DNA of 64,000 nt from an uncultured bacterium (lineage in GTDB: Bacteria > Bacillota_I > Bacilli_A > RF39 > UBA660): positions 8,976 through 72,975 of the forward strand of contig CAOJEC010000002.1 in NCBI GenBank assembly GCA_948433885.1. The letters run 5' to 3'. Each line of letters begins with the position of its first letter. Position 1 is the stretch's first letter. Both the position numbers and the translations under genes were made by a program. The notes under the pieces are model-generated. The model was not told the origin of the DNA, did no database searches, and worked only from the letters and a program-made list of their open reading frames with translations. Below are positions 12,001 through 54,992 of the stretch, one piece after another.

Positions 12001-15000
12001 GCCTGTTATGATAGGATCGATTGTATCGATAGTGAATCTATAAGTTACTGTATTACCAGCTGCATCTGTTACTATCAATACGTGTTTACCATCGGCAATT
12101 TCTCCACCTAAGAATATCTCTCCGTTTAGAGTTGCTGTTACACCAGGTTTGTCATCTTCAAAAGTAACATTCTTGTTTTCGTTATATTCGCCTTTATTAT
12201 CTACACCTGAAATTGTAGGTTTAACTTTGTCGATATTCTCGACTGTATATTTTGCAGTACCTACGTTACCAGCTGCATCCGTAAACTTGAATGTTATAGT
12301 ACCATTGATAGACTTTTTGAATGTCCATGTTTGGTCGTCTATTTGTTCTAGCGCTTTGTTCTCAGTCAACATTGTTACTGGTTCACTAGTCTTGATTGTC
12401 AAGATTACTGCTTGATTTGTTGGTGTTGTAGTACTTGGTGTGATTTCTGCTTCTGGTTTTGTTCTATCTATAGTGAAGTTGATTGTAGTAAAGTTTCCAG
12501 CTTCATCGGTTACGATCAAAACGTAATCTCCACTTTCAGTTACATCAGTTCCACTTACAAAAACGTTACCATTTAATGTTGCAGTTCCTTCAGTGAATGT
12601 AGGAGTGACGATAGTGTTGAATAAATATTTGTTTTCTGCTTCGACAAATTTATCTTCATCAAATCCACCCACTTCTGGTGCACCTTTATCGATATTGTTT
12701 ACTACATAAGTAATATTTTTTGTGTTGCCTAATTTATCAGATACGACGATCGTATTAGATATATTCTCTATAGCAGTAGCAGTGTAAGAATATGTTCCAT
12801 CTGCTAATTTGAGAACAGTCCAATCAAGTTCATCAGTAAATGTCAACTCTTCACGAGCTTTGATAGTTATGATGACGTCTTGATTTGTAATTTCAGTAGT
12901 AGAATATGTAGGAGCATCTACATCGACAATTTTATCGATATTTTCTACTTTATATGAAATTTCAGTTTTATTATTATTCGCATCAGCAATGACAATTGCA
13001 CCTGAGATATTTTCAGTTATAGTAGTCGCATATTGATACTTACCATCTTCAGTAAGTTCATCTAGTTTATTCCATACATTTCCATTATTGTCAGTAATTG
13101 TGACTTCTTCATCTACTGTCAAAGTCAAAGTTACATCTTTATTTGTATCTTCTTCTGTATTAGCTGTTATGCTTCCAACAGGAGCGGTCTTATCGATCGT
13201 TACTGAATATGGAAGTGAAACTTCATTTTCGGCTTTATCGATAAGTTTGATAGATCCAGTTACTGAATCATTTACAGTATAAACGTATTGATATTTACCA
13301 TCTTCAGTCATTTCATTGAGTTTCAACCACATATATCCATTTGAATCTTCGAATGTGATCTCTTCATCGACTGTCAATATCATCTTTATAGAATCGACTA
13401 ATCTATCAGTTGTCGCATCATCGATATTTTCATATGATATAGACCCCTTAGGATTTGCTGAATCGATTTCGACTGTTACAGTAAGTTCATTTTCGCCTTT
13501 ATCGACTAAGTACAATACGTACTCACCATCAGCATTCAAAACTACTGATCCATCTTTCTTTCCATCGCTTATTTCCTGAATACTTGCATTATTCAATTTA
13601 GCTGCGACACTGCTGTATTTGTCTTCGAAAGTAATAGTAACTTCTTTGTTAAAATACAATTTCTTAGTTATATCGTCAATGACGATTTCTTCACCGTCGA
13701 CGATGAACTTAACATCAGGAGTAGACTTATCTATAGTCGGATAATAGACGATAGCATTACCTGCTTTATCAGTCAATTTTAAAGTATGTTCTCCTTCTTC
13801 AGAAAGCGTAACTTTTCCATTTTCGATTTCGACACCATCGAGTTCAGCTTTGACTTCTCCACTTTCATCTTCAAAAGTTATAAGAATATCTTCGCCATAT
13901 ACTTGACTTCCAACTGAACTTGTAGGATTCTTTTGATCAATAACAAATTTTATAGTAGTGCTTCTACCAATAGAATCGGTTACAACTAACGTATATTCAT
14001 TATGTTTACCATCGATTGCATATATCGTTTTTCCATTCGCGATTTCATCAGCAGATAACTCTTCTCCGTTCAAAGTTGCTGTCAACTCTAAAGGATTTTC
14101 TACGATATTGATCGTAATATCATGATTGAAATAATGTGTTGAAGTTTCATCGTCGATCAATTTACCATCGATGTTAACTTCAGGTTTATCTTTATATATA
14201 GTAAATTCGATTCTTGTAGTAAGCCCAACTTCATCAGTGACTTCTAAAACGTGATTTCCACTAGCGGTAATTTTAGTATCAGTAAATTCTTTACCATCTA
14301 ACATAACAGTGGTCTTAGTCAAATCACTAATTTCGATGTTGACTTCGTTTTCGTATTTATCTTCATACTTATCGCTACCATTTAATAATACACTAGGAGC
14401 AGTCTTATCGATTGTAACAGTTCTAGTTGTTACAAGACCAGCCTTATCAGTAGCTATGAGAGTATAAAGACCCTCTTCATCTAAAGTTACTTCAGAATTG
14501 GCATACACTAATCCATTCTTCTTGACTGTAACAGATTTTAGATTTGTATCGATTGCTTTGACAACAAAATCATCCTTTGTAATCAAATCTGAATCTAAAC
14601 CTTCAAATTCAGGAGCAGTCTTGTCGATTGTGAAGATAGTCGTTCCACTATTTCCAGCATCGTCAGTCAAAACTAAAGTATGTTCACCTTCGTCTGATAC
14701 GACATGACCACTTGAGATTTCCAAACCGTCCAATGTAGCAGTTACAGTACCACCTTTATCATCGAATGTTATAGTTCTATTTTCTGAGTAGAATTTACCA
14801 TTCACGACACCTTCCACAGTAGGAACTTGTCTATTTATTGTGAAGTTGAAAGTTACAACATGTCCTGCACCATCAGTTACAGTTATGACATATTTTCCTT
14901 CTTTAGTAAATACTTCTCCGTCCTTCAAATCTCTATATAAAGTATTCGACTTAGCAACAACATTCGAATATTTATCTTTGAAATGAATGATCACATCTTT

Positions 15001-16137
15001 ATTTATAGATTGTCCATCTACAATCTTAGTTCCATCTTCAGTTTCAGCCCATACTTCAGGATCTGATTGATCGATTGAGAAATTGACTGATACTTCCCCA
15101 ACGGAGTTTCTAACTGTCAAAGTATATTTACCTTCTTCAGTAATTGCACCTCCACTATTGATAGGTCTCTCACTCGCTTCTTCACCTTCTACAGCATGTT
15201 TATACAATGTTGCTTCATCACCATAATAAGAAACTCTATAAGGTAACTCAGTGTATACACCACCTTCGGTAATTCTATTGATAACTGGTGGATTTGTTGT
15301 AGTAGTTTTTCCCAATGAAAATTTTGCTACTGTTTTATTTCCAGCTTCATCTGTAGCGACAACTTCATAAGAACCCGTTTCATTGATCGCATTAGAAGTC
15401 ATCTTATCACCATTGACAAGAACATCTTTCAAATTGTCATCTTGAACATTGAGTGTTACTCCTGTACCATAGTTAGAAACTACATCTTTACCATTGACAA
15501 GAATAACAGGAGCTTCTTTATCGATGTTTGTTGCACTTACATTTACAGTTGCATTCTTTTCTCCATCGAGTGAAACAACTTCGAAAGAATCTTCTCCATT
15601 TTCAGTATATATTTTTGTAAGCGTCTTTTTATCATTAGAAAGAACCCAATCTTCTTCATCTACTTTTTGAACCTGTTCACTAAAACGAACTTGAACTTCA
15701 ACGTTTCCATTCGTGTATCTAGTCGAACTTGGTAATACTTTATAAGTCAATATAGAAGTATTGCTATCCAAATTTGAATCATCAGATTGATTTTCATTCT
15801 CATCAACTTTGACAGAATCTGTCTCACATGTGAGACTTGGCTCATACTTATATGTACCATCTTCATTCGTAATAGTAACATATGAGTTATTTATACATTC
15901 GTCTTTCATACTAGAAACTAAACTTCCAGATTCTTGAAGACGAGAAGCACTCGTAACCAATTTAGAATCGATCGCCAAATTGTTGTTCTCGACATACTTC
16001 TTAGCAGATTCTACTAAGACGTCACTATAATCCCTTTCTTTGTATAATAAATTTGTGACCGTATAGGCACCAGCAACCACAGTTGTAACTGCAGTAACCC
16101 CCAAAACTACATTTTTAACTTTATTATTTGTTGCCAT
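1..16137 (-). CDS. Giant cell-surface repeat protein, at least 5,379 aa, with the 3' end beyond the left edge. It has an N-terminal signal/anchor, dozens of ~85-95 aa Ig-like modules ending in IDK(T/D/E)AP, DUF5011/HYR-like modules, two FIVAR-like helical blocks and DUF6273-like distal domains.
   Basis: ATG at 16135-16137 is preceded by GGAGG (rc of 16144-16148) with a 6-nt spacer. I translated the minus frame by hand over 1-9750 and 13900-16137 and spot-checked 10321, 11461, 12361 and 13081; no stop appeared and the frame is the same at both ends (16137 = 3 x 5379). The ORF track lists no bounded minus-strand ORF here except one out-of-frame 70-aa ORF, as expected for a single ORF leaving the window. 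N-terminus: MATNNKVKNVVLGVTAVTTVVAGAYTV (hydrophobic anchor). Recurrent motifs: TxTDxAGN...FTIDKTAP. Confidence 0.9.
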   Translation of the reverse strand, partial: MATNNKVKNVVLGVTAVTTVVAGAYTVTNLLYKERDYSDVLVESAKKYVENNNLAIDSKLVTSASRLQESGSLVSSMKDECINNSYVTITNEDGTYKYEPSLTCETDSVKVDENENQSDDSNLDSNTSILTYKVLPSSTRYTNGNVEVQVRFSEQVQKVDEEDWVLSNDKKTLTKIYTENGEDSFEVVSLDGEKNATVNVSATNIDKEAPVILVNGKDVVSNYGTGVTLNVQDDNLKDVLVNGDKMTSNAINETGSYEVVATDEAGNKTVAKFSLGKTTTTNPPVINRITEGGVYTELPYRVSYYGDEATLYKHAVEGEEASERPINSGGAITEEGKYTLTVRNSVGEVSVNFSIDQSDPEVWAETEDGTKIVDGQSINKDVIIHFKDKYSNVVAKSNTLYRDLKDGEVFTKEGKYVITVTDGAGHVVTFNFTINRQVPTVEGVVNGKFYSENRTITFDDKGGTVTATLDGLEISSGHVVSDEGEHTLVLTDDAGNSGTTIFTIDKTAPEFEGLDSDLITKDDFVVKAIDTNLKSVTVKKNGLVYANSEVTLDEEGLYTLIATDKAGLVTTRTVTIDKTAPSVLLNGSDKYEDKYENEVNIEISDLTKTTVMLDGKEFTDTKITASGNHVLEVTDEVGLTTRIEFTIYKDKPEVNIDGKLIDDETSTHYFNHDITINIVENPLELTATLNGEELSADEIANGKTIYAIDGKHNEYTLVVTDSIGRSTTIKFVIDQKNPTSSVGSQVYGEDILITFEDESGEVKAELDGVEIENGKVTLSEEGEHTLKLTDKAGNAIVYYPTIDKSTPDVKFIVDGEEIVIDDITKKLYFNKEVTITFEDKYSSVAAKLNNASIQEISDGKKDGSVVLNADGEYVLYLVDKGENELTVTVEIDSANPKGSISYENIDDATTDRLVDSIKMILTVDEEITFEDSNGYMWLKLNEMTEDGKYQYVYTVNDSVTGSIKLIDKAENEVSLPYSVTIDKTAPVGSITANTEEDTNKDVTLTLTVDEEVTITDNNGNVWNKLDELTEDGKYQYATTITENISGAIVIADANNNKTEISYKVENIDKIVDVDAPTYSTTEITNQDVIITIKAREELTFTDELDWTVLKLADGTYSYTATAIENISNTIVVSDKLGNTKNITYVVNNIDKGAPEVGGFDEDKFVEAENKYLFNTIVTPTFTEGTATLNGNVFVSGTDVTESGDYVLIVTDEAGNFTTINFTIDRTKPEAEITPSTTTPTNQAVILTIKTSEPVTMLTENKALEQIDDQTWTFKKSINGTITFKFTDAAGNVGTAKYTVENIDKVKPTISGVDNKGEYNENKNVTFEDDKPGVTATLNGEIFLGGEIADGKHVLIVTDAAGNTVTYRFTIDTIDPIITGVVDQGLYNKNVRPSYNEGTAVLTKKTVDEDGSIVDTVVADYVKGASITEDGIYTLTVTDGVGNDTVVTFTIDKTAPTAIITQDPTEDKYTNGAVILTFEASEPIEMLTESSALTKVSDTVYTFKKSINGTITFKFKDLAGNTNSIRYTVDNIDKTKPIVTGVENKGIYNAPVTIMYSDDHNVGAMLNDEFFTSGNTVSEDGKYTLVVTDEADNKVTYTFTIDTKAPEITGVEDKGVYNKNVRPSYNEGTGVLTKKVVDEDGAITEVVIEDYKKGAAITEDGIYTLTVTDGANNSTAVTFTIDKTAPTAEITPSTTAPTNQPVILTIKTSEPVTMLTENKALEQIDNQTWTFKKSINGTITFKFTDAAGNVGTARYTVENIDKEAPVGTITADVTAPTKGSVTLTLEVSEPIKDMSESDWTLVKDATLEDRTVRYTKTLSENTDGEIELTYTDLAGNKGSVKYEVSNIDNIPATVDVTYSTTEDTNEDVTIMINTSEKVSFEDELLNWTETRNEDGTYTYTATATENVSNTLTLTDEVGNVTENVVYSVNNIDKTSATAGVTYSTTEDTNEDVTITINTSKKVSFEDELLNWTETKNENGTYTYTATATENVSNTLTLVDHVGNETEVSYSVENIDKTPANATVSYNTTESTTGSVEITITSDKAVTFEDDKLEWSDAVEENGKFIYTATATENVSNTLTLVDHVGNITTVTYSVENIDHNVPTITIEGGNVIVTIKGMDITYPEVSATDKEDGELTVTADKTEVDINEAGEHTITYTATDSAGNTASETLTIRVINVDKYNKIAAYMEMLETNSTGGFYFSVNENKYDYTDKSWQTKKMYFDALTMMVDGTIKLNPNITQEYMDKQIETVENMELIPAEKDMYDYNTVIGKIAKLVESDYTKETWAELMTLKSESEVEGTLRLQSDVNYYSKALERLVKDLEKEPVVDTTEDYRDKYKEEDYSGYDAYQEALTELSTAVSEGILKSEYEARLEEIEEAILATRLPIDASAYEAILKDLEDNYEEADYTNESWTALQEKLNAVQAVIDRDGLRSEYNAALEQIDLNDLVANALDTTEFDNIVIEFGKLIETDYTAESWTAIENQIAKVQAIIDNNGLISEYEKELANLSLDNLEALAIDTTEFDKIVAEFEQLVESDYTSESYTFIKELIDEAKELIANGALRSEFKVVFDQIDLNDLVAIPKATNVTFVTDGANGYATIGNKLTLEFNSNTELDLTGTEVIINGEQVTVSKEGDLYRAVVIVDENTKEGKVTYTIKPVGPDGLEGAEVSVESDIIVDITEPTIEISGDKVNGQNNLYTSTVTVTVAESNVKEVYVNGVLDTSFVSPQDFTEDGTYTIKVIDQVGNEETVTFTIDTKAPNGTITSSNEDPTNEDITLTFEVDEEIIIIDGGNWTRVTNEDPTDKTIRYTLDVSENGIYEITYKDLAGHTGSASYEVENIDKTPAKTTLIPSTGGQTMNPVTLTLTSDEPLIITSTTDEWTASADKKTFTLVVTSNRTVTVEYTDLAGNAGSKTYTVSNIDTEVPTATIEADTTESTNQDITLTLNASEEIVITSTTDEWTKVTGSEYTLVVSDNRTVTVEFKDLAGHIGSVSYTVANIDKIPATADVTYSNTNLTNQDVVITLTSDEAVTFEDDKLEWSSAVEENGKFIYTATATENVSNTLTLVDHVGNTSTVSYTVENIDKTAPTATFVGVNPEGPTNSFKEITIRVDKVVKTTNTGTIPTVEVKVDEETGAKYTLLAAKRSNNGKYMFKFEDEAGNSGSFVYEVEGIDKEKPTAELYEITPEGPTNSHKTITIKTSEKVISLNTGTRVDVENKVDEEGNEYSLLTANRSNNGNFSFIFQDEAGNKGTFVIDVTGIDKEAPKGTITANKTDITNEEITLTLTVDEAIKDLSDSEWTLIKDATESDPSVQYQRTVSANGEIVVNYKDLAGNAGSASIEITNFDDVAPTITLTDENTKVEEGIYNGAVTVTVNDANADKVYVNGVLDAAFGTSKTFSEDGVYTIKAVDKAGNESSEVTFKIYKTAPTITIEGGNVIVTIKGMDITYPKVTATSSVDGELTVTADKTEVDINEAGEHTITYTATDSAGNTASETLTIRVINVDKYNKIAAYMEMLETNSTGGFYFSVNENKYDYTDKSWQTKKMYFDALTMMVDGTIKLNPNITQEYMDKQIETVENMELIPAEKDMYDYNTVIGKIAKLVESDYTKETWAELMTLKSESEVEGTLRLQSDVNYYSKALERLVKDLEKEPVVDTTEDYRDKYKEEDYSGYDAYQEALTELSTAVSEGILKSEYEARLEEIEEAILATRLPIDASAYEAILKDLEDNYEEADYTNESWTALQEKLNAVQAVIDRDGLRSEYNAALEQIDLSELVLIPVVVNPVITTTGNVGYAKAGDVIKLEFESNVELNVTATEDEPLVTTATINGQTAIVTKNAETGKYEASITITDSSKEGIVSYTITPVGPNQLVGTAIEPTDSDIVVDVTPADTNMIPSNTSPTVGPVVITLTSNEELIITSEGWTKVEGKNEYTSEVTANKVVTVEYTDLAGNYGSASIEVENIDLVDPTANIVANTSDGTNQDVILTLTPSEEIIITSTTDVWTKVEGKNEYTLTVSANREVVVEFEDLAGRKGSASYNVTNIDKTPAKATVSYTDADKVVTNKDVTITLTSDKELSAIRDTNGMNWIDSVQTENGSFVYSVTVSENVTGTLTLVDLVGNETIVEYAVSNIDKVLPEATITYVTGTTGNENIIDGDTPTKEDVTIKLTSTKKLVEIVDSNNMNWMNFVEGEVELSLNEKYTYRVTVSKNIAGTLNIKDEAGNTVEGIEYNVSGIDKDAPVATLEPNTTEMTNQDVKLTLNVTNEENVTIKNSNVNYELVDGKYVFTVEENTEVSVTIADAVGNETVVTYNVENIDKDAPNMTIIDKNTGEEVTSGMYIKGSVIVTVDEGIIYDNNAEVASGSEISSDGVHRIYAVDAAGNTTKVIYVGIDNTAPVVSGVEDGMIYDGEVTINATDMNSMTATMDGEAFTLGESYNVSGHHTLVVTDRVGNSTTVEFDIDTEAPVIELDGEQVNGIYTEGVTVNVTDDNIDTIMNGEVEITNGSTIDEDGTHTITATDKAGHTVSVTFTIDTKDPVIEGFEDGKTYSEAITVTVSDANLVSITLADGTTIESGATFTEDGTYSITAVDAAGHSVTKTFTIDSLPPVVTGVEDGKVYTDDVTLEFDKGTATVNGETVESGTVLSDGKYTVVVTSDAGKKTELSFIVDTKAPVINGFDDESHYSVDVTVNVEDHNIVSIKNNGEEITNGTTFTEDGVYVITATDIVGREVTKTFTIDKTDPNIAISGTSINNNGIYTGDVTISVEDANISTIVDKDGNEVEGNATFTEDGTYTITATDKAGNETTVTFTIDNASPVVSGVEDGEVYGEKVTVSFDKGTATLNGVEFTNGTEVSDGRYELVVTGENGKTTSVTFYVDTLPPEITSIKDGMIYGNDVTIEFNDATTKPIAKLDGKTVQNGDVISKEGNHTLIVIDEAGNSTSVTFTIDKTAPELEIVDNKGVKHKEDFEVTLEADKVNKFENFEYNVTDRDGASVSVDINGVVDLATLGDNYTLTYKATDDVGNTRVITVTVKVKDTTAPTITLGGNGSAIEVKYGSSFADTYGATAEDTFDGELEVKTSHNVNVYEVGTYEITYTATDASGNETTEKRTVKVVSTTATDMFKEENSCTDGEQCYATNSTDNYIWYSGHLWRVVKVNADGTLRIVTEESATGFSFDDNSSVFTGSHAERWLNNVFYPSLNNASTIVSTGEFCSEKMTSLTNVRYTCSANSVVKSKVGLLTIDEYNILGGANGFLNNGERYFTMTPTSEDTAWVVEETGRKERGYYVNEPYAMRPVININPVDILKGRGTAADPYVIDEGNKASVGSNLTNRSTGEYVNFGGKAWRIVSTSNEGTKLIADNYLTTNDGYVNIEFGTVGVFNTTSGIGKYLNT
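4839..5778 (-). repeat. 940-bp perfect direct repeat, copy B, inside the giant ORF (FIVAR-like helical block plus part of a DUF5011-like module)
   Basis: I compared it line by line with 8808-9747 and found it identical. Mismatches occur at 4838/8807 and 5779/9748. Confidence 0.9.
8808..9747 (-). repeat. 940-bp perfect direct repeat, copy A
   Basis: The offset to copy B is 3,969 bp (3 x 1,323), so the two copies are in frame. Confidence 0.9.
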
Positions 16138-16167
16138 AATAAACCTCCTAAATATTTCGCAAATATT

Positions 16168-16196
16168 ATTCTATCATTTACGTAACATTTTGTCAA
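16168..16196 (-). promoter_or_regulatory. Sigma-A-type promoter of the giant surface-protein gene
   Basis: On the minus strand, TTGACA (rc of 16191-16196), an exact 17-nt spacer, then TAGAAT (rc of 16168-16173), about 30 nt upstream of the ATG. Confidence 0.55.
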
Positions 16197-22719: not shown

Positions 22720-23154
22720 TTACATATTTGCTTCGTCTTCTAAATCATCGACTATAACTAAATCGGATAAATCGTCATCATCGACGTCGTCATCTTCGGA
22801 TTTATCGGTATCTTCATCGAACATATCATCCTCTTGATTGACATCATCATCTTCGAGAACGATGTCATCGTCCTCTTCATCATCTTCGAAAGTTTCCATT
22901 CCTTTATTATGTTTTATTTTCAAATCCCAATTCCCATCTTCCAACATGATAAATCTCTTATCGGTACTGAGTAGTTCAAAAAAATCCGCGATATGTTCAG
23001 CATACTCGCTTTCATCCATTTCCAAAATTTTTCCTACTTCAGCAAATAAATCGTTGATCTTCATTTTTTTGCCATTTTCCGCGAGAATGATATGAGCTAT
23101 ATCATTGTAATTCATCAATTCGGCCTCTTCTAAACTCAAGTTAATTTTTTTCAT
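22720..23154 (-). CDS. rpoE: RNA polymerase delta subunit
   Basis: N-terminal HARE-HTH-like domain followed by a long D/E-rich acidic tail. Confidence 0.8.
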   Translation of the reverse strand: MKKINLSLEEAELMNYNDIAHIILAENGKKMKINDLFAEVGKILEMDESEYAEHIADFFELLSTDKRFIMLEDGNWDLKIKHNKGMETFEDDEEDDDIVLEDDDVNQEDDMFDEDTDKSEDDDVDDDDLSDLVIVDDLEDEANM

Positions 23155-23660: not shown

Positions 23661-25598
23661 GTGATTATTATAAAAAAATTCTTGAAAACAAGTTTAAAAG
23701 TTTTTCTCATTTTAACAGTATTGGGAGTATTGACTATCGGAGGACTGTACTTCTATGCTTTTTGTTCTCCCAAAATTGCCATAAAAACTAACGGTAAATA
23801 CTACATCTACGATCAAGAAAACGAACTCGTTTATCAAGGGTCTAGTTCTAGTGAATGGGTCGCCTTCGACGATATCTCGGATAATTTAAAAAATGCCATC
23901 GTATCCGTAGAAGACAAAAACTTCTATAAACATCAAGGATTCGATTACTTGAGAATCGCCAAATCTTTGATAAACAACTTTCGCACCAAAAGTCGATCGG
24001 AAGGTGCTTCGACGATCAGCATGCAATATGTAAAAAATATGTATCTCACGTTCGATAAAACATGGAAGCGAAAAATAGAAGAAGCTTTTCTAACTTTAGA
24101 ATTGGAAGTACACTATTCGAAGGAAGAAATTTTAGAAGGATATCTTAATACCATAAATTTTGGACAAGGAAACTTTGGTATACAAGATGCTTCACTTTAT
24201 TATTTCAACAAAGATGCTGGCGATTTGACTTTGGAAGAAGCCTGTATTTTAGCCGCCATACCGAAAAGTCCCGGATACTATAATCCTGTATCCGACTACG
24301 ACTTATCTATACATCGTGCCAAATTGGTCGCAAGTACGATGGTGACTAATGGATATATTACAGAAGAAGAGAAAGAAGAACTATTCCAAGAACCGATCGA
24401 GATATATGGTAAACGTGACAAGAACAATTTGAATACTTTGATGTATTATCAAGATGCCGTAATTGCCGAACTTTCGTCGCTTTCGAACATTCCAAAATCT
24501 GTCATCGATTCTGGTGGATTAAAAATATACACAACTCTCGACATCGAAAAACAAAGAGCTCTTGAAGATGCCGTAAAAACGAATATGCTGACCGACGAAA
24601 CTCAAATTGCATCGGTCTACGTCGATCCAAAAACAGGTGCTGTCGAAGCTTTGGTCGGCGGACGAGATTATAGCACAAGTCAATTTAATCGAGTAACACA
24701 ATCGAAAAGACAAGTTGGTTCGACGATCAAACCTTTTCTATATTATTCTGCTTTGAGTAACGGAATGACTATGGCTTCAACTTTCAGAAGTGAACCTACT
24801 ACTTTTACTTTATCTAATAACAATACATATAGTCCTAATAATTACGGAAACTATTATGCAAATAAAAATATAACCATGGCCGCTGCGTTGGCATATTCGG
24901 ACAACGTTTACGCCGTCAAAACGCACATTTTTCTAGGAGAAGACAATCTAGTCGATACTATGAAATCGATGGGACTCAAAGAAGAACTTTCTGCCATTCC
25001 ATCTTTACCTTTGGGGACTATAGAACTGAATATGTTAGATTATGTCAAAGCCTATACTACATTGGCAAGCGGAGGATACGAAAGAGATATTCATTTCATA
25101 CGACGTGTCGAAGACATGAATGGAAACTTGATTTACGAAAGAAAAGATACCGACGAACTCATACTAAACTACAATTATGTTTTCATCACCAATCAAATGT
25201 TGACGAATACTTACAATCCTGAATTTATAGATTATATAAATCCGACAGTCATTACGATGAAAGGTCGTCTTTCGAGAGATTATGCCATCAAGACAGGTAC
25301 CACTGACACAGACAACTGGATAGTCGGTTACAATCCGGATGCACTTCTCATGATATGGACAGGAAATGATAATGGGCTATCCACACCGGGATATGCCAAA
25401 GTAGTAAAAGATATATGGGCGGACACGATAGAAACGACTCTCAAGGACGTTCCACCATCTTGGTATGAAATGCCCAAAAATGTAATAGGCCTACCTCTTT
25501 CACCTGTGACTGGAGAATTTGTCAAAAACGGAAAAAATTCTATGTACTATTTCGTAAAGGGAACCGAACCACAAATATATTTAGAAGCCTCTCGTTGA
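23661..25598 (+). CDS. Class A penicillin-binding protein (glycosyltransferase plus transpeptidase)
   Basis: GT51 motifs EDKNFYKHQGFD and GASTISMQ. Transpeptidase motifs STIKP, SDN and KTGTT. N-terminal TM anchor. Confidence 0.9.
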   Translation: MIIIKKFLKTSLKVFLILTVLGVLTIGGLYFYAFCSPKIAIKTNGKYYIYDQENELVYQGSSSSEWVAFDDISDNLKNAIVSVEDKNFYKHQGFDYLRIAKSLINNFRTKSRSEGASTISMQYVKNMYLTFDKTWKRKIEEAFLTLELEVHYSKEEILEGYLNTINFGQGNFGIQDASLYYFNKDAGDLTLEEACILAAIPKSPGYYNPVSDYDLSIHRAKLVASTMVTNGYITEEEKEELFQEPIEIYGKRDKNNLNTLMYYQDAVIAELSSLSNIPKSVIDSGGLKIYTTLDIEKQRALEDAVKTNMLTDETQIASVYVDPKTGAVEALVGGRDYSTSQFNRVTQSKRQVGSTIKPFLYYSALSNGMTMASTFRSEPTTFTLSNNNTYSPNNYGNYYANKNITMAAALAYSDNVYAVKTHIFLGEDNLVDTMKSMGLKEELSAIPSLPLGTIELNMLDYVKAYTTLASGGYERDIHFIRRVEDMNGNLIYERKDTDELILNYNYVFITNQMLTNTYNPEFIDYINPTVITMKGRLSRDYAIKTGTTDTDNWIVGYNPDALLMIWTGNDNGLSTPGYAKVVKDIWADTIETTLKDVPPSWYEMPKNVIGLPLSPVTGEFVKNGKNSMYYFVKGTEPQIYLEASR

Positions 25599-25648: not shown

Positions 25649-26818
25649 TTATTTATCCTTTTTGATCTTGACGACTATCTGATACATATCTTCAAAATCG
25701 TATTCTTCCATTTCTACACGGAAACCATTTTGCTCAGCTCCTCGGACTGCGCCTCTTATACTGTTAATTTGATCTCCTATATTCTTACTCGAATCCTGAG
25801 TTTCCACCGTAGCACTCGGACCTCCGAACATTGAATCCATATTTTGATTTAAAGGTGTAGTATTAGGAGGAACGATATCACCAAACATATCAAAAGTTTC
25901 TATCGTCTCAGGCTCACTAACTGAAACATTCAGACTTGGATCCACGGGTGTAATTTGATTTGCATCTTGCTGTGGAGCTCCTACTTGCTCGCCTGTAAAA
26001 GGATTGAAACTTACAGGTGGCACGAATTCTTCCTCTCCTATTGTCAAATTAGGAGCACTAGTTTCCAAATCCGTTGGTGGTTCCATAGCAAAACCAAAAA
26101 GATTTTTTGTCGCTTGATTTTGTCCACTGACAGTTGTATCCATTTCATTCATATTGTTCATTTCTACACGTGCGCCTCCTGTCGAAGATTCTGCTGCACT
26201 TAGAGCGGCAGCTACTCCTTGTGACATTTTCTTTATTTCATTATCTAACTGTTTGACCGTCAACCTCTCTTTTACGATTCGGTTCAACATTTTCTTTTGA
26301 TCGTCAGGATTGGCGATTTGCAACAAACTGCGAGCATGACGTTCACTTATTTGTTCGTTCAAAAGAGCATTTTGAACTTCATCACAAAGATTTAGAAGTC
26401 TCAACTTATTTGCAATAGTCGGCTGTGATACGCCCAATTTTTTTGCAAGTTCATCTTGAGTTATATAACCTCTTTGCAACAAATTCTTATAACTCTGAGC
26501 TTCTTCGATACTAGAAAGATTTTTTCGCTGTATGTTTTCGATCAACGCAATCTCGGCACTTTCATTATCGGTAAGTTCACGTACAATAGCAGGTACTTTT
26601 TTTAATCCTGCCATACATGAAGCCTTGTACCTACGTTCTCCAGCAATTATTTCATACTTATTTCCGACTTTGCGGAGCACTAAAGGCTGTATGACCCCAT
26701 GCACTTTTATCGAATCGGATAGTTCTTGTAATGCCTTTTCATCGAAAGTAAGCCTAGGCTGAAATCTATTAGGAATAATATCTTCGACAAATATTTCTTG
26801 CACTTGTTCATTATTCAT
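25649..26818 (-). CDS. noc: ParB-family protein in the noc position (Noc-like), with a ~150-aa low-complexity insert and a short N-terminus
   Basis: ParB N-domain (IIPNRFQPR, GERRYKA). The HTH region SQPTIANKLRLLNL...ISERHARSL resembles B. subtilis Noc rather than Spo0J. The C-terminal end INSIRGAV...FRVEMEEYDFEDMYQIVVKIKK resembles the Noc C-terminus. It lies directly downstream of rsmG. Confidence 0.8.
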   Translation of the reverse strand: MNNEQVQEIFVEDIIPNRFQPRLTFDEKALQELSDSIKVHGVIQPLVLRKVGNKYEIIAGERRYKASCMAGLKKVPAIVRELTDNESAEIALIENIQRKNLSSIEEAQSYKNLLQRGYITQDELAKKLGVSQPTIANKLRLLNLCDEVQNALLNEQISERHARSLLQIANPDDQKKMLNRIVKERLTVKQLDNEIKKMSQGVAAALSAAESSTGGARVEMNNMNEMDTTVSGQNQATKNLFGFAMEPPTDLETSAPNLTIGEEEFVPPVSFNPFTGEQVGAPQQDANQITPVDPSLNVSVSEPETIETFDMFGDIVPPNTTPLNQNMDSMFGGPSATVETQDSSKNIGDQINSIRGAVRGAEQNGFRVEMEEYDFEDMYQIVVKIKKDK

Positions 26819-26868: not shown

Positions 26869-27588
26869 TTATTGCAATTTTTGCAATGGTTTTTTCGATA
26901 TTTTATCAAATGATCGTGGATATTCATCGGGAGTTTTACACTTTTTATTTACGAATACGAACGATCTTGATGCATTTTTAACTGGCAACAATGTCTCGAC
27001 AACTCTAGTGACGTCACCACCGAGAGTCTCGATTGCGTAAATTCCATTTTCCAAAGTTGGATCTAATACTCCTTTATACGGGATGAACATTCCACCTTCT
27101 TTGACGAAGGGAATTGATAGTTCTGCCAAAGTAGGCATGGCTGTCACAGCGCGAGACGTGACTATATCGAAACTTTCTCTTTTCTTAGAATTATATTTCT
27201 CAGCACGATCATTTATGACAACATAATCCAATTTCAAAACATCTTTGAGTTTCGTCAAAAAATCCGTTTTCTTTCCATTTGAATCCAATAAGGTAATATC
27301 GATATTTGGAAAACAAATCTTCAATGGCACCCCTGGAAATCCTGCTCCTGATCCAATATCGAGGACTGTTTTTCCACTTATATCGAAATACTTCGTCATC
27401 AAAACTGAATCATAAAAATGAGTTAGATAAACATCTTCGATCGTTTTGATTGCTGTCAAATTGGTATGTGAATTGTAATCCAAAAGAAATTCAGCATATT
27501 TTTTAAACTGTTTCTTTTGATCTTTCGACAACTCGATTCCAAGTTCTTTCAATGATTTGACAAATTCTTTTTCACTCATTTTTTCCAT
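26869..27588 (-). CDS. rsmG: 16S rRNA (guanine527-N7)-methyltransferase
   Basis: GidB-family sequence (DIGSGAGFPGVPLKI), downstream of mnmG. Confidence 0.9.
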   Translation of the reverse strand: MEKMSEKEFVKSLKELGIELSKDQKKQFKKYAEFLLDYNSHTNLTAIKTIEDVYLTHFYDSVLMTKYFDISGKTVLDIGSGAGFPGVPLKICFPNIDITLLDSNGKKTDFLTKLKDVLKLDYVVINDRAEKYNSKKRESFDIVTSRAVTAMPTLAELSIPFVKEGGMFIPYKGVLDPTLENGIYAIETLGGDVTRVVETLLPVKNASRSFVFVNKKCKTPDEYPRSFDKISKKPLQKLQ

Positions 27589-36134: not shown

Positions 36135-36174
36135 TCGAAATAGTGTATAAGGGTATGGCAAGGAGGTGATATAT

Positions 36175-36642
36175 ATGAACGATAAGTACACTATAAATGC
36201 AGATACTTTGGCAATTATACCGATCAGTAAAAAGAAAACTAGAGTATACGAAAATGATACAGTATTGACCATCAATAGAAATGCTAATAAAATAATCGCC
36301 GATAACTGTGAATATTTTGGAAGTTCTTACGCAGGAAGAAAAAAAGGAACTTTGGAATTGATTGGAGTGACTCACAAAGCACCTATAATAATCGAAGATT
36401 CTAACAGTTTAATCTTTTTTCCTACATCTAGCCCTCGTCTCAACGACTGTGGTTGGATTTCGCTTAACAATTTGGACTCTTATAAAGGTTATGCTGATGA
36501 TAGTATTTTGAGTTTTCAAAACAATCTAAAATTGCAAGTAAATGTATCAAATCGCATCATAGACAATCAAGTTTTGAGAGCGACAAGATTGGAAGCAATA
36601 ATTCGCAAAAGAAAAAACATAAAAAAAACTCCAAATAAGTAA
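36175..36642 (+). CDS. comK: ComK-family competence transcription factor
   Basis: YFGSSYAGRKKGT and HKAPIIIEDSNSLIFFPTSSPRLNDCGWIS closely match B. subtilis ComK (FFGSSYAGRKAGT; HKPPIMVDPSNQIFLFPT...CGWIS). AAGGAGG lies 8 nt upstream of the ATG at 36175. Confidence 0.85.
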   Translation: MNDKYTINADTLAIIPISKKKTRVYENDTVLTINRNANKIIADNCEYFGSSYAGRKKGTLELIGVTHKAPIIIEDSNSLIFFPTSSPRLNDCGWISLNNLDSYKGYADDSILSFQNNLKLQVNVSNRIIDNQVLRATRLEAIIRKRKNIKKTPNK

Positions 36643-42387: not shown

Positions 42388-42426
42388 AAAAAAATAGGTA
42401 TGAAAAACTCCCTATTCTTTTTTTAT

Positions 42427-42446
42427 ATTATTTCCCGGGAAATAAT
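42427..42446. promoter_or_regulatory. Noc-binding-site (NBS) palindrome 1
   Basis: ATTATTTCCCGGGAAATAAT is a perfect 20-bp palindrome containing the B. subtilis NBS consensus ATTTCCCGGGAAAT. Confidence 0.75.
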
Positions 42447-42464
42447 GGTTGAATCTACCTGCGG

Positions 42465-42504
42465 AAATTTACAATCTTTTGTATATACGAAAGATTGTAA
42501 ATTT
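42465..42504. repeat. Perfect 15-bp inverted repeat with a 10-nt loop
   Basis: AAATTTACAATCTTT - tgtatatacg - AAAGATTGTAAATTT. Confidence 0.8.
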
Positions 42505-42526
42505 AGTACTTGTAAAGAAAATTGGA

Positions 42527-42544
42527 ATGTTACATGTGAAACAT
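42527..42544. promoter_or_regulatory. Degenerate parS-like site within a 36-bp palindrome (42518-42553)
   Basis: ATGTTaCAtGTGaAACAT has 3 mismatches to the local perfect copies. It is flanked by 14-bp arms AAAATTGGAATGTT / AACATTCCAATTTT. Confidence 0.45.
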
Positions 42545-42686
42545 TCCAATTTTAAATTATCATTTAAATATCACCTAATATAAGATACTTCCAGGAAATA
42601 TTATAATAAGAAAATAAAGTAAAAAGTATATATGATCTTTAAAGTTTAAATAACTATAAATACAGATTTAATATTTATATGCATTT

Positions 42687-42704
42687 ATGTTCCACGTGAA
42701 ACAT
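42687..42704. promoter_or_regulatory. parS site a
   Basis: The core TGTTCCACGTGAAACA is identical to the B. subtilis parS consensus. An extra half-site GTGGAACA lies at 42710-42717. Confidence 0.8.
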
Positions 42705-42742
42705 CACAAGTGGAACAAAAAATGATATTTTTAATATTGTAA

Positions 42743-42760
42743 TTATTTCCCGGGAAATAA
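42743..42760. promoter_or_regulatory. NBS palindrome 2
   Basis: TTATTTCCCGGGAAATAA is a perfect 18-bp palindrome. Confidence 0.75.
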
Positions 42761-42785
42761 AAATATAGGTATTTTTCCACAGCAC

Positions 42786-42803
42786 ATGTTCCACGTGGAA
42801 CAT
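42786..42803. promoter_or_regulatory. parS site b
   Basis: ATGTTCCACGTGGAACAT is a perfect 18-bp palindrome. TTTTCCACA lies just upstream at 42773-42781. Confidence 0.8.
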
Positions 42804-42958
42804 TAGATTTTGACATAGTAAAGTTTAGATATAATTAGTCTAAGTAATATTTTATTTAAAATCAAATTCTCAGTTGTATTAAAAATAATTATAAATTTAT
42901 TTTAATACTATTAAGAGTTAAATTGGTTGTACTCTTCTTACTACTTTTCCACAACTAG

Positions 42959-42976
42959 ATGTTCCACGTGGAACAT
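42959..42976. promoter_or_regulatory. parS site c
   Basis: ATGTTCCACGTGGAACAT is perfect. TTTTCCACA lies at 42945-42953. Confidence 0.8.
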
Positions 42977-43140
42977 GATAGTATTAAGTCAACGCTTTGT
43001 TTTTTATTAGCTCATTTCTAGAAAATGCAGCACAAAACCGAATTACTAAGCATCTAGTTAACATTGGTTAAATTAATATAAAATCTTAATGATCATATTG
43101 ATAGTTGAAAATGTTTTTTATAATATTCTTTCCACAACAA

Positions 43141-43160
43141 AATGTTCCACGTGGAACATT
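43141..43160. promoter_or_regulatory. parS site d
   Basis: AATGTTCCACGTGGAACATT is a perfect 20-bp palindrome. CTTTCCACA lies at 43128-43136. Confidence 0.8.
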
Positions 43161-43220
43161 GTATAATACTTGGTAATAAAATTTATAAAACACTTGAATA
43201 TACGTACATTTGTATGCAAC

Positions 43221-43236
43221 TATTTCCCGGGAAATA
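43221..43236. promoter_or_regulatory. NBS palindrome 3
   Basis: TATTTCCCGGGAAATA is a perfect 16-bp palindrome, 8 nt upstream of the ffs -35 element. Confidence 0.75.
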
Positions 43237-43243
43237 ATCCTAC

Positions 43244-43272
43244 TTGAATTTTATAATTTAATATGATAAAAT
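43244..43272 (+). promoter_or_regulatory. Putative promoter of the SRP RNA
   Basis: TTGAAT (43244-43249), a 17-nt spacer, then TAAAAT (43267-43272). This places the start near G43278/79. Confidence 0.5.
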
Positions 43273-43277
43273 TTAAA

Positions 43278-43352
43278 GGCACAACGAACTATTGTCGAAC
43301 CTGGTCAGGATTGGAAAATAGCAGCCATAAGATGAGAATTCGTGTGTGCTTT
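43278..43352 (+). ncRNA. ffs: Small (4.5S-type) signal recognition particle RNA
   Basis: cctGGTCAGGattGGAAaatAGCAGCCataagatgagaattcgtgtgtgc parallels E. coli 4.5S ccaGGUCAGGuccGGAAggaAGCAGCCaaggcagaugacgcgugugcc. It has a GGAA tetraloop, and the closing stem GCACA(A)CGAA / TTCGTGTGTGC has one bulge. The ends are approximate. Confidence 0.8.
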
Positions 43353-43367
43353 TATTTTGGAGGAATT

Positions 43368-49393: not shown

Positions 49394-52300
49394 AAATCAT
49401 CACCGATAAATTTCGTTATAAAAAGGACCACAATGTATACGGTCTTACAAAAGAATTGATCACTCTTTATATATCTAACTATTTTGAAGAAAACGACGAA
49501 AACGTTTTGATTTTGACGAGTACACTTTATGAAGCGAATAATATATATAAAGCACTACAGGCATACACGAGCGATGTTCTGTTTTTTCCGATGGACGATT
49601 TTTTGGCATCAGTTGCGCTCGCTATTTCACCGGATTTGAAAATAAAAAGACTTGAAACATTGGAAAAATTGCTCAACGAAAAGAAAAAACATCTTGTCGT
49701 GACCTCATTGATGGGATATTTAAAATTTTTGCCTAATAAAGAAGAACAACATAGTCTCGTCATAGATACATTGTCACAAAATATTTCCCGGGAAATAATT
49801 TTAAACAAATTAGAAGACTTTGGATACAACCGTGAATCTCTAGTGACGACGACTGGTGAATATGCTGTACGAGGATATATAGTAGACGTATATCCGGTCG
49901 ATCGAGAAAAGCCTGTTCGAATCGAGTTTTTTGGAGATGAAGTCGAATCGATAAAAGAGTTTGACGAAAATACTCAAAGAACTACAACTACGATTGAACG
50001 ATTTGAAATTAAAAAATTTAATGAAACTATATCTACGGACGCCAATTCACTCTTGGACTATATGAATGATCGAACAGTCTTTATAATTGATGAACAAAGA
50101 GTATGCACATCATATAAAAATTTACAAGAAGAGATGCTTGAATACTGTACTAGCAAAGAAATTCCTGTTTCAACAAAATTCATGTTCGGCATGGAAGAGA
50201 TAGCAATAAATAAGGTTTATAAGATCGAAACATTGAACACCATAGAAGATCCAAAATCACTAATTTATGTTTCTAAGGAAATGGAAAATTTTGGAGGTAA
50301 TCTTGAAAATCTAGACACATTTGTTAAAAGGATGCTCGAAAAGAGTACCATTATCTTTGCTTTAGAAAATACAAAACAAATTAACGAAATAAAATCACTT
50401 TTTGATGATGCACTCATTACGAACGAAGAACACATTCATTTGAGAAAGATAAATATCATCGAAAAGAAAATGAACCACGGCTTTGCATTTGAAAATATCT
50501 TAGTTATCACACCTTATGATATAGACAAAAGCACTCGAACCGATGTCAAATACAAAAACACCATAAAAATAGGCCGTAAAGTTAAAACTTACACAGAACT
50601 TGCCAATGGAGATTATATAGTACATGAACAACATGGAATAGGTATTTACCGTGGTCTCAAAGCTATCAAAAATGGCGAATTCGTAAAAGATTATATCGAA
50701 CTGGAATACGAAGGAAAAGACAAAGTATACCTTCCAATCGATAAAATTGATAGACTTTACAAATACTCTTCGAGTGTCGGAAAGGCACCGAAATTAAACA
50801 AACTAAACAGTACGGCATGGGCCAAGAAGAAAAACGAAACAAGAAAAAGAATCCGCGATATCTCGGGCGAACTTTTAGAACTTTATTCTTCAAGACAAAA
50901 AGTAATCGGGCCTGCATTCGCAGATTTTGACGAAGAAATAGCATTCGCTTTTGATTTTCCTTATGCTTTAACTGACGACCAGGAAAAGACGATAAAAGAA
51001 ATAGACTACGATTTAAAATCGCCAGCTCCGATGGATAGACTACTATGCGGGGATGTGGGTTATGGAAAAACTGAAGTCGCTTTTAGAGCGATGTTCAAAA
51101 CTGTCATAAACGGCTTTCAAGTATCTTATCTATGTCCAACAACAATTTTATCTAAACAACAATATACGAGTGCCTTGGAAAGATTCAAAAGATTCCCCAT
51201 TCGTATAGAACTATTGAATAGGCACATTTCGACAGCCAAAGTAAATAAAATTTTAAAAGAGTTAGCAGAAGGTAAAATAGACATAGTCATTGGAACCCAT
51301 AAATTGTTAAATGACAAAATCGAATATAAAAATTTGGGATTACTAGTGATCGATGAAGAACAAAGATTTGGAGTTTCTCATAAAGAAAAAATTAAAAAGA
51401 TGAAAAATGACATTAACGTCTTGACCTTGTCGGCTACACCTATCCCGAGAACATTGAAAATGGCAATGAGTGGGTTACGAAGTCTATCAGTGCTAGATAC
51501 GCCACCAGTGAATCGCTATCCAATTCAAACTTACGTTATTGAAGAAAATGATCTCATCATGAAGGATGCTATATACAAAGAGATGACTAGATCTGGGCAA
51601 GTGTTCCTACTTATCAATAGAATCGATGAATTATCTTCATACAAGACGAAAATTCAAAAACTTATCCCGGAAGCGAGAATCGTATGTGGACACGGACAAA
51701 TGACCTCTGAAGAATTGAACGATATAATGGAAAGTTTCATTCGAGGAGAACACGACATACTGATATGTACTACTATCATAGAAACAGGCATCGATATTGC
51801 CAATGTCAATACTATAATAATTTTGGATGCCGATCACTTTGGTCTAAGCCAATTGTATCAAATTCGAGGCCGCGTCGGACGAAGTGATAAAATAGCGTAT
51901 GCTTACTTGATGTATAAACCTGCGAGACTATTGACTGAAACGGCAACTAAACGACTAGAGTCTATTAAAGAGTTTACTGAATTGGGAAGTGGATATAAAA
52001 TAGCAATGAGAGACTTGGCCATTCGAGGTGCAGGGGATTTGCTAGGTAGCGAGCAAGCAGGTTTCATAGAGGCAGTAGGACTCGATTTATATACAAAGAT
52101 GGTAAACGAAGAGATGAATCGCTTAGAAGGCAACTTCGTCGAAGAAACAGAAGATTCTACCTCTACCTTCAACACGAATACACATATCGAAGATGAGTAT
52201 GTCGAAGATGAAAGTATAAAAATTGAAATACACAAACTCATAAATACTATCAAAACTAAAACAGACTTATTGAAAGTAAAAAATGAACTGATCGATAGAT

Positions 52301-53165: not shown

Positions 53166-53197
53166 TAAAAAAAAGATGATGTGTTATCATTGTCATA

Positions 53198-53393
53198 TTG
53201 AACGGCGAAGAAAAGAGTAAATTTTGAGAAGTGCATAGAGAGCTATTGGACGGTGTAAAATAGTGACTAATCGACATTGAACATGGTTTTGGAGTTCAAA
53301 CGTATACCTGCGTTAAAGGATAAAGAGCATGATAATCATGAATTAAGGTGGTACCGCGGGAGTGTTCTCGTCCTTAAATTCATGATTTTTTTA
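53198..53393 (+). promoter_or_regulatory. T-box riboswitch leader (Met specifier) controlling metG
   Basis: The Stem I base is TTGAAC...GTTCAA, with an AGAGAG element. The candidate specifier AUG is at 53283-53285. The T-box sequence AATTAAGGTGGTACCGCGGG is at 53341-53360. The terminator arms are 53335-53348 and 53372-53386, followed by T7. Confidence 0.85.
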
Positions 53394-54972: not shown

Positions 54973-54992
54973 ATTATTTCCCGGGAAATAAT
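54973..54992. promoter_or_regulatory. NBS palindrome 5
   Basis: ATTATTTCCCGGGAAATAAT is a perfect 20-bp palindrome identical to copy 1. Confidence 0.75.

Follow-up and report, generated by a model that had tools for sequence, protein, structure and literature searches.

The DNA analysed here, a stretch of 64,000 nucleotides of contig CAOJEC010000002.1 from an uncultured bacterium (referred to below as the window), covers a chromosomal origin region. Its minus strand carries rnpA-yidC-jag-mnmE-mnmG-rsmG-noc and its plus strand dnaA-dnaN-comK-recF-gyrB-gyrA, followed by the signal recognition particle (SRP) RNA, tadA, dnaX, recR and further genes; dnaA is flanked by DnaA boxes. The subject of the analysis is the last gene of the minus-strand series, an open reading frame (ORF) at positions 25649..26818 that encodes a ParB/Noc-family protein of 389 amino acids with the N-terminal sequence MNNEQVQEIFVEDIIPNRFQPR. 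An initial annotation, made from the letters alone, had described it as an atypical Noc that (i) lacks about 25 N-terminal residues including the amphipathic membrane-targeting helix, (ii) carries an insert of about 150 residues with three phenylalanine-glycine (FG) motifs, and (iii) reads Q-K-N-R at the positions that govern DNA recognition. Position, domains and recognition residues place the protein in the Noc lineage, but it lacks the membrane helix and scores below the curated family threshold; we class it as a variant of the Noc kind and not as a functional Noc.

The short N-terminus is a property of the protein. Three in-frame stop codons lie within the 17 codons preceding the ATG, the spacing between the rsmG stop and the ATG is 50 nt, and an AAAGGGG ribosome-binding site sits 8–9 nt 5′ of the ATG. 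The identical protein sequence occurs on 27 independent contigs, and in all 120 homologues compared the start lies 14–22 residues ahead of the NRFQPR box. These observations effectively refute the explanation that a mis-called start or a frameshift conceals an upstream exon with an amphipathic helix; nothing was found in its favour, and its probability is practically nil. The overlooked upstream start that the initial annotation had itself named as a possible flaw was looked for, no upstream reading frame was found, and the observation stands. One cluster member of 420 amino acids (P0251) owes its length to a C-terminal and not an N-terminal extension. We aligned the protein to solved chains of the PDB with phmmer and obtained 192 bits for residues 3–200 against residues 25–223 of Geobacillus thermoleovorans Noc, 184 bits for residues 2–201 against residues 26–228 of Bacillus subtilis Noc, and 177 bits for residues 4–200 against B. 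subtilis Spo0J. Residue 25 of G. thermoleovorans Noc corresponds to residue 3 of the protein and residue 26 of B. subtilis Noc to residue 2. Since the alignment begins at Noc residue 25–26, about 24 N-terminal residues are absent, including the amphipathic membrane-targeting helix that defines Noc function, in agreement with the earlier estimate of about 25; by the same alignment, the start of the protein coincides with the start of the engineered variant NocNΔ26.

We compared the protein with its 120 closest homologues (n = 121 with the window protein), which stem from gut metagenomes and metagenome-assembled genomes (MAGs) labelled uncultured Bacilli, Tenericutes and Erysipelotrichaceae; a few labelled Muribaculaceae are taken as mislabelled. 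The homologues are 228–492 amino acids long, a few of them truncated, with full-length members of at least 325 amino acids. All 120 combine the short N-terminus with a long linker, and 113 of the 121 sequences read Q-K-N-R, so that these features cannot be regarded as the oddity of one gene. The initial annotation had held that its observation would lose its point if the insert and the asparagine at position 184 proved common in ordinary Noc orthologues of the clade with normal specificity; with 120/120 and 113/121 sequences sharing them, this is partly the case. Farther relatives, collected from dnaN-anchored loci, likewise have the short N-terminus, a linker of 78–265 amino acids and QKSR, QKAR, QKTR or QKNR as recognition set, and none of the related loci that we examined lacks the atypical noc gene. 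Bacillus-type Noc proteins returned by the same search are 284–293 amino acids long, read QKKR and carry an N-terminus with 38–43 residues before the box; all canonical Noc proteins recovered here begin with MK[HS]PF[ST]R[FI]F. The N-terminus has been described as extremely conserved, and an amphipathic helix was predicted for each of the Noc homologues studied (Adams 2015, PMC4331003). As judged from its sequences, the atypical clade is an exception to this generalisation.

The domain architecture of the protein is that of a ParB-family clamp with intact cytidine triphosphate (CTP)-binding motifs. Pfam places ParB_N at residues 4–97 (E = 1.8e-35) and the ParB-type helix-turn-helix domain HTH_ParB at residues 99–199 (E = 2.4e-32). 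In an alignment of 67 homologues the FQPR, GERRxK and ENxQR motifs show no variation, the invariant residues including R18-F19-Q20-P21-R22, G60-E61-R62-R63 and E94-N95-Q97-R98, and conservation across the family core amounts to 85–100%. AlphaFold2, supplied with the same 67-sequence alignment, folds residues 1–208 and 345–389, for which 10-residue block means of the predicted local distance difference test (pLDDT) are ~77–97, and renders residues 209–344 as low-confidence coil with block means of 38–59; the linker is therefore predicted to be disordered. N, E, P, T, S and D are enriched in it, and its net charge is about −18. The long disordered insert thus exists as first described, with a length of ~136 residues (136–145) and not 150. 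The C-terminal 46 residues, aligned locally to the C-terminal domains of six canonical Noc proteins, reach z = 13–19 over shuffled sequences and z = 0.2 against the C-terminal domain of the Spo0J of sister locus L015; the C-terminus is therefore specifically of the Noc type and not of the Spo0J type.

Column conservation in the 121- and 67-sequence alignments reveals four conserved islands amid otherwise unalignable linker sequence. The three FG motifs noted at first are all there (NLFGF at residues 239–243, DMFGD at 310–314 and SMFGGP at 329–334), of which the first two are conserved and SMFGGP is not; the conserved TDLE..APNL and SFNPF had gone unnoticed. Motif 1 has the general form K-N-[IL]-F-G-[FM], with KKxSLFFNNLE and NNRFFGTMPE as counterparts in farther relatives. 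Motif types 1 and 3 reappear in relatives whose DnaN is ~57% identical to that of the window, for example as KKNSLFFNNLENE...FGFNPFK, and none of the four motifs was found in other proteins of the window. In our interpretation, one or more partner proteins probably dock at the conserved motifs.

Five lines of evidence agree with the Noc-like identity proposed at the outset: (i) the position directly after rsmG (gidB), the canonical noc slot, (ii) the order noc-soj-spo0J kept in sister lineages, pointing to an ancestral arrangement with soj-spo0J next to the gene, (iii) the Q, K and R recognition residues together with ERHAR, (iv) the C-terminal domain and (v) the presence of Noc-binding sites (NBS) in the genome. 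TIGR04285 is the best NCBIfam match, with 291.4 bits under a curated cut-off of 315; in control searches canonical Noc scores 375.5, other atypical members 272–300 and Spo0J 247 bits. In a neighbour-joining tree the core is about equidistant from canonical Noc (47–51% identity) and Spo0J (46–48%). We therefore base the Noc assignment on synteny, on the C-terminal domain and on the specificity residues, and do not draw it from the core tree.

When the protein is aligned with 7NFU, 7OL9 and 6SDK, its residues Q132, K138, N143 and R160 fall on the specificity positions 173, 179, 184 and 201. In the published model, specificity is switched to NBS by Q173, the reader of adenine 1, and R201, the reader of cytosine 6; the permissive residues K179 and K184 contact the backbone, and one lysine, at one or other of the two, suffices (Jalal 2020, PMC7383237). 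The protein has both switching residues and the permissive lysine at 179. Specificity for parS goes with R at 173 and with G, or else a small polar residue, at 201, and these two positions are here occupied by Q and R. Because Q173 and R201 are present and one lysine is enough, the Q-K-N-R set is expected to be NBS-specific, and N143 (position 184) should leave this specificity unchanged. The residues had thus been read correctly, and position 184 had been wrongly taken as specificity-determining; the assignment of permissive and switching positions (Jalal 2020, PMC7383237) rules out N184 as a change of specificity.

Within the clade, orthologues in the same slot, between rsmG and a penicillin-binding protein (PBP) gene, depart from Q-K-N-R. 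P0091, found in three independent samples (L017–L019) with 85% core identity to the window protein, reads R-K-N-G; P0116 (L100) reads L-K-K-R, P0114 K-K-Q-G and P0115 E-K-N-R. Since P0091 is nested inside the QKNR group of the neighbour-joining tree, both of its switching positions seem to have changed secondarily, toward ParB-type recognition. These sequences suggest that DNA specificity has been naturally re-switched within the atypical clade, and the RKNG orthologue is a natural case on which the published permissive/switching model of how specificity evolves can be tested. The P0091 lineage also has an mnmG gene (L017 1563-3926) fused to an N-terminal GNAT acetyltransferase domain, coding for 787 amino acids.

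The window contains five perfect 16-bp NBS (TATTTCCCGGGAAATA), where ~0.25 matches with at most two mismatches are expected by chance; these sites fit ordinary NBS recognition by the Q-K-N-R protein. It further contains four perfect parS sites and one with a single mismatch, against an equal chance expectation of ~0.25 at up to two mismatches. The NBS and parS sites nearest to noc are 15.6–15.9 kb away, which confirms that perfect sites of both kinds lie within 16 kb, as first noted; what had escaped notice is that they are interleaved in a single clade-conserved intergenic array of 875 bp downstream of gyrA (Table 1). The array recurs in L027, L029, L031, L034, L046, L048, L057, L058 and L060 at ~17.3–19.6 kb. 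In relatives, the arrays downstream of gyrA contain as many as 14 parS-like sites, 10 of those perfect, and L058 has 7 such sites at an exact 38-bp period. Of 54 perfect NBS in clade loci, 31 have a parS within 600 bp and 17 have one within 35 bp. Tight NBS-to-parS composites number 18 when near-identical loci are counted separately; the spacer measures 13–15 nt in nearly all and contains a DnaA-box consensus in 15 of the 18. The example TATTTCCCGGGAAATA-ATT-TTATCCACA-A-TGTTTCACGTGAAACA represents a recurrent 45-bp NBS-DnaA box-parS module, and such tight modules suggest direct interplay of three origin-binding proteins. Across 935 kb of clade loci we counted 119 parS-class and 55 NBS-class sites and no NBS/parS hybrid at the four discriminating positions. 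Two pure site classes without hybrids argue for two distinct and strict DNA-binding specificities. Just before the array, the last 140 nt of gyrA (window 42249-42374, minus strand) contain four TT[TG]TCCACA DnaA-box-like elements spaced 36–45 bp apart.

Table 1 Features of the noc gene, its product and the associated sites (positions in the window; residues of the 389-amino-acid protein)
Feature	Position	Strand	Evidence or remark
Whole gene: Noc-lineage ParB-family protein without N-terminal membrane-targeting region	25649..26818	-	389 aa
N-terminal ParB-CTPase domain, residues 1-97	26528..26818	-	Pfam; without membrane helix and LG[KR]GL motif
HTH DNA-binding domain, residues 99-208, with Q132, K138, N143, R160	26195..26524	-	Pfam, alignment, AlphaFold2
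Acidic linker predicted to be disordered, residues 209-344	25787..26194	-	Block-mean pLDDT 38-59; net charge ~-18
Linker motif 1, TKNLFGF, residues 237-243	26090..26110	-	G242 in >=90% of homologues
Linker motif 2, TDLETSAPNL (TDLE..APNL), residues 249-258	26045..26074	-	D250, E252, N257 in >=90%
Linker motif 3, SFNPF, residues 270-274	25997..26011	-	F274 invariant; F271, N272, P273 in >=90%
Linker motif 4, ETFDMFGD, residues 307-314	25877..25900	-	E307, F309, F312 in >=90%
Third FG motif, SMFGGP, residues 329-334	25817..25834	-	Unconserved, mostly gapped in homologues
C-terminal domain of the Noc type (one helix, two strands), residues 345-389	25649..25786	-	pLDDT 89-96
rsmG (gidB), canonical noc slot	26869..27588	-	Directly upstream of noc
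Convergent class A PBP in the soj-spo0J place of Bacillus, L015, L045-48	23661..25598	+	Synteny
gyrA-to-SRP-RNA intergenic array, 875 bp	42388..43262		3 perfect NBS, 5 parS, DnaA-box-like elements
Perfect NBS in array	42429, 42744, 43221		Site scan
parS in array	42528, 42688, 42787, 42960, 43143		Site scan
DnaA-box-like TTTTCCACA just upstream of two parS	42773, 42945		Site scan
Perfect 16-bp NBS within mfd	49782..49797		Site scan
Perfect 16-bp NBS, metS/tatD intergenic	54975..54990		Site scan

The state of the gene allows a first alternative to be weighed, namely that loss of the N-terminus and growth of the linker reflect neutral decay and that the protein is a drifting remnant with little function beyond residual DNA binding. 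The wide variation of linker length (78–265 amino acids) and of most linker sequence, together with the score below the curated Noc threshold, would agree with decay. A core conserved at 85–100%, CTP-motif residues that are all invariant, four linker islands conserved at 90% or more amid free-running sequence, perfect NBS maintained at non-random places and a gene kept in every related locus examined would not, and we regard a drifting remnant as quite improbable.

The parS sites raise the question of the protein that reads them. The order rsmG-noc-soj-spo0J is found at L015, where noc encodes a QKSR protein of 396 amino acids and spo0J a protein with R at position 173 and LGMGL at its N-terminus; at L045, L046 and L048 soj immediately follows the atypical noc. 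In the window subclade a convergent PBP gene follows noc instead of soj-spo0J, and neither soj nor spo0J was found within 10 kb of noc or dnaN in ~35 loci of the subclade. The window protein itself, with the N-terminus MNNEQVQEIF, has neither the N-terminal ParA-binding motif (L/F/I)G[KR]G(L/F/I), as defined in PMC12704722, nor an adjacent parA. When the L015 Spo0J served as query in a homologue search, all matches came from its own lineage. Gut Bacilli MAGs contain a large family of canonical Spo0J proteins of 296 amino acids that read R-M-S-G, with LGKGL in the N-terminus; among 50%-identity cluster representatives this family gave the best full-length match to the L015 Spo0J, at 56% identity. 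Its genes lie in a relocated context, tilS-ftsH-...-soj-spo0J-mscS-DUF951-abgT-ychF(-rpsF-ssb-rpsR-rplI-dnaB), without an adjacent noc (L106–L117, L128–L131 and L138–L141), and the rearrangement breakpoint falls exactly at the junction of noc and soj. A relocated soj-spo0J block is what would be expected of genomes in which soj no longer comes after noc. We therefore consider it highly probable that the genome of the window encodes a separate canonical Spo0J.

According to the opposite explanation, soj-spo0J was lost in the subclade, and the Noc-lineage protein is the sole chromosomal clamp of the ParB family, working on NBS and parS alike, unless the parS sites are relics. The absence of soj-spo0J within 10 kb of noc or dnaN in ~35 loci, in the window and in the 10 kb beyond its right end would agree with such a loss, as would the ParB-type R and G of the same-slot orthologue P0091. 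It is opposed by Q173 and R201, which exclude parS recognition (Jalal 2020, PMC7383237), by the two pure site classes without hybrids, by perfect parS arrays kept across deeply diverged species, and by the presence of both proteins in sister lineages and of a large Soj-Spo0J family, detached from noc, in related MAGs. On balance, this loss is very improbable. A same-species strain (L104 15425-17153) carries an insertion in yabG with a ParA-like ATPase, a protein consisting of ParB_N only, a SpaA-type pilin and a sortase, which is probably a mobile element and not a chromosomal partition system.

The linker motifs admit two readings, membrane contact and protein docking. In the former, the protein is a true nucleoid-occlusion factor in which membrane contact has moved into the linker, either by an internal [KR]-x-[FLI]-F-G motif or by way of a partner that is itself bound to the membrane. 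Motif 1 (TKNLFGF; NNRFFGTMPEN in L020 and KKNSLFFNNLE in L025) recalls the canonical membrane-targeting core SRFFGLGEKE, in L020 over 4–5 residues, ETFDMFGDIV has a helical hydrophobic moment of 0.52–0.54 versus 0.49 for the canonical helix, the NBS sites are kept, and a heterologous amphipathic helix can substitute for the Noc N-terminus (Adams 2015, PMC4331003). However, the linker has a net charge of −18 and its most amphipathic segment a charge of −3 versus +2 for the canonical helix; for motif 1 the moment is 0.34–0.39 (versus 0.49) and the net charge zero, prolines come after it, and no helix is predicted there; and the NBS are concentrated at the parS array and not scattered, as far as the origin-proximal DNA examined here is concerned. 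Because the likeness of the motif spans 4–5 residues, its moment is lower and the linker is acidic, we favour protein docking over membrane insertion and judge relocated membrane contact, the main competing reading, to be unlikely. As to the nature of a docking partner, ETFDMFGD presumably bears a loose resemblance to β-clamp-binding motifs of the QxDMF or QLxLF type, and Noc of Staphylococcus aureus has been linked to the control of replication initiation. Since DnaA boxes sit between NBS and parS, a replication-related partner may be considered, only as a lead.

In the reading that we prefer, with a probability of roughly 0.55, the protein is a Noc-lineage ParB paralogue of uncultured low-GC (guanine plus cytosine) gut Bacilli that acts as an NBS-loaded clamp or adaptor at the origin, alongside a separate Spo0J. 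At the level of sequence, it combines an intact ParB-CTPase domain, the NBS switching residues with one permissive lysine, a Noc-type C-terminal domain and perfect NBS in its genome. A dimer would nucleate on an NBS and, with CTP bound, would close its N-gate to form a sliding clamp that spreads locally. Such clamps would accumulate at the centromere-like region beside the canonical parS-binding Spo0J, because most nearby NBS lie in or beside the parS array downstream of gyrA, often near a DnaA box. The canonical output, in which CTP-released amphipathic helices tether DNA to the membrane, would be unavailable to a protein without the helix. Instead, the acidic disordered linker (78–265 amino acids) would expose its conserved motifs and recruit one or more partners, making the protein an NBS-loaded adaptor of the origin region.

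Several points weigh against this reading. Neither the 64-kb window nor the 10 kb past its right end contains a second ParB or a ParA. No link was found between the relocated Soj-Spo0J contigs and the window species: their GC content is 29–32% versus 33–35% for the window and same-species loci, blastn finds no overlap with either, and no MAG accession is shared. The core of the protein is in the tree about as distant from canonical Noc as from Spo0J, AlphaFold docking of the linker motifs onto the folded domains gave no confident placement, and CTP binding, clamp formation and NBS binding are ascribed to the clade protein by homology.

A more specific proposal, which we put forward tentatively and hold to be possible at most, is that Noc in this clade has given up nucleoid occlusion by membrane tethering and now serves as an adaptor of the origin region, loaded together with ParB and DnaA at the composite modules of the centromere-like array, that its linker recruits a partner from replication, segregation or division, and that the slot has been re-switched from QKNR to RKNG, LKKR and KKQG. 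If true, re-switching of the slot would amount to a natural reverse replay of the ParB-to-Noc specificity switch, which has been a subject of laboratory work only.

The surroundings of the gene offer further observations. A ComK-family gene lies between dnaN and recF (36166-36642, plus strand), an unusual location in an origin cluster that is kept in L100–L102. Since the longest tadA ORF overlaps the SRP RNA (43271-43360) with its 5′ end, the real tadA start is probably further downstream, and a T-box leader (53196-53378) precedes metS. At 22720-23154 on the minus strand, a position kept in relatives, a protein of 144 amino acids with an extremely acidic C-terminal tail (D/E runs) is encoded, for which Pfam gives no match at 1e-5; we take it to resemble the δ subunit of RNA polymerase (RpoE). 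The left end of the window is occupied by an ORF of at least 5,390 codons (1-16170, minus strand), which runs off the end, contains internal repeats of ~3.97 kb (matches 5101/9070 and 5636/9605) and probably encodes a giant surface protein. The idea that rRNA operons account for the ORF-poor first 16 kb was rejected: Rfam finds no rRNA there, and the region is one giant ORF.

Noc is the model of nucleoid occlusion in Firmicutes and, to our knowledge, the case in which a CTP switch was first shown to govern membrane binding. In both mechanistic papers the N-terminal amphipathic helix is taken as universal and essential (PMC4331003, PMC8429893). A large natural clade that has retained the CTPase fold, the C-terminal domain of Noc and, by its residues, NBS recognition, and yet has dropped the helix and gained a linker with conserved motifs, contradicts this universality. 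Either nucleoid occlusion can be attained in another way, or the NBS-Noc module has been reused at the origin. Our search for literature on Noc in Erysipelotrichia found nothing specific, and as far as the searched literature shows, the combination of a helix-less Noc, a motif-bearing linker, NBS in parS/DnaA-box arrays and re-switched orthologues is new.

Comparison with known systems places the protein as follows. The origin-anchoring proteins RicO and RocS (bioRxiv 10.64898/2026.03.06.710092), site-specific DNA-binding proteins that cluster with parS close to the origin and have a disordered region, offer a conceptual likeness only; their fold is unrelated, neither is a CTP clamp, and no homology is implied. 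With chromosomal ParB/Spo0J (6SDK, 1VZ0) the protein shares the fold, a core of 46–48% identity and presumably the CTP-gated sliding clamp, but it lacks R173, G201, the LG[KR]GL motif and an adjacent parA, and its C-terminal domain is not of the Spo0J type (z = 0.2). It is like Noc (YyaA) of B. subtilis, S. aureus and G. thermoleovorans (7OL9, 7NFU, 6Y93) in the slot after rsmG and the CTPase domain with its CTP motifs, and like canonical Noc in Q173, K179, R201, the ERHAR recognition helix, the C-terminal domain, the NBS TATTTCCCGGGAAATA and the absence of a ParA-binding motif. It differs from canonical Noc in that (i) ~24–26 N-terminal residues are missing, which comprise the membrane helix α1, helix α2 and the connecting loop described in PMC8429893, (ii) an acidic disordered linker of ~136 amino acids with four conserved motifs stands in place of a short basic one (KPKPKRKAF, ...KPKPKRKAFSKD...), (iii) position 184 is N (S, A or T in relatives) and not K, (iv) TIGR04285 gives 291 versus 375 bits, and (v) the nearby NBS are embedded in a parS array. 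The closest counterpart of its N-terminus is man-made: the native protein begins at the truncation point of NocNΔ26 (Jalal et al. 2021, PMC8429893). In B. subtilis, NocNΔ26 (PMC8429893) and helix-less Noc (Adams et al. 2015, PMC4331003) are loss-of-function forms in membrane binding or occlusion; unlike these engineered proteins, the truncated form is here the conserved native state of a clade and is joined to a new linker.

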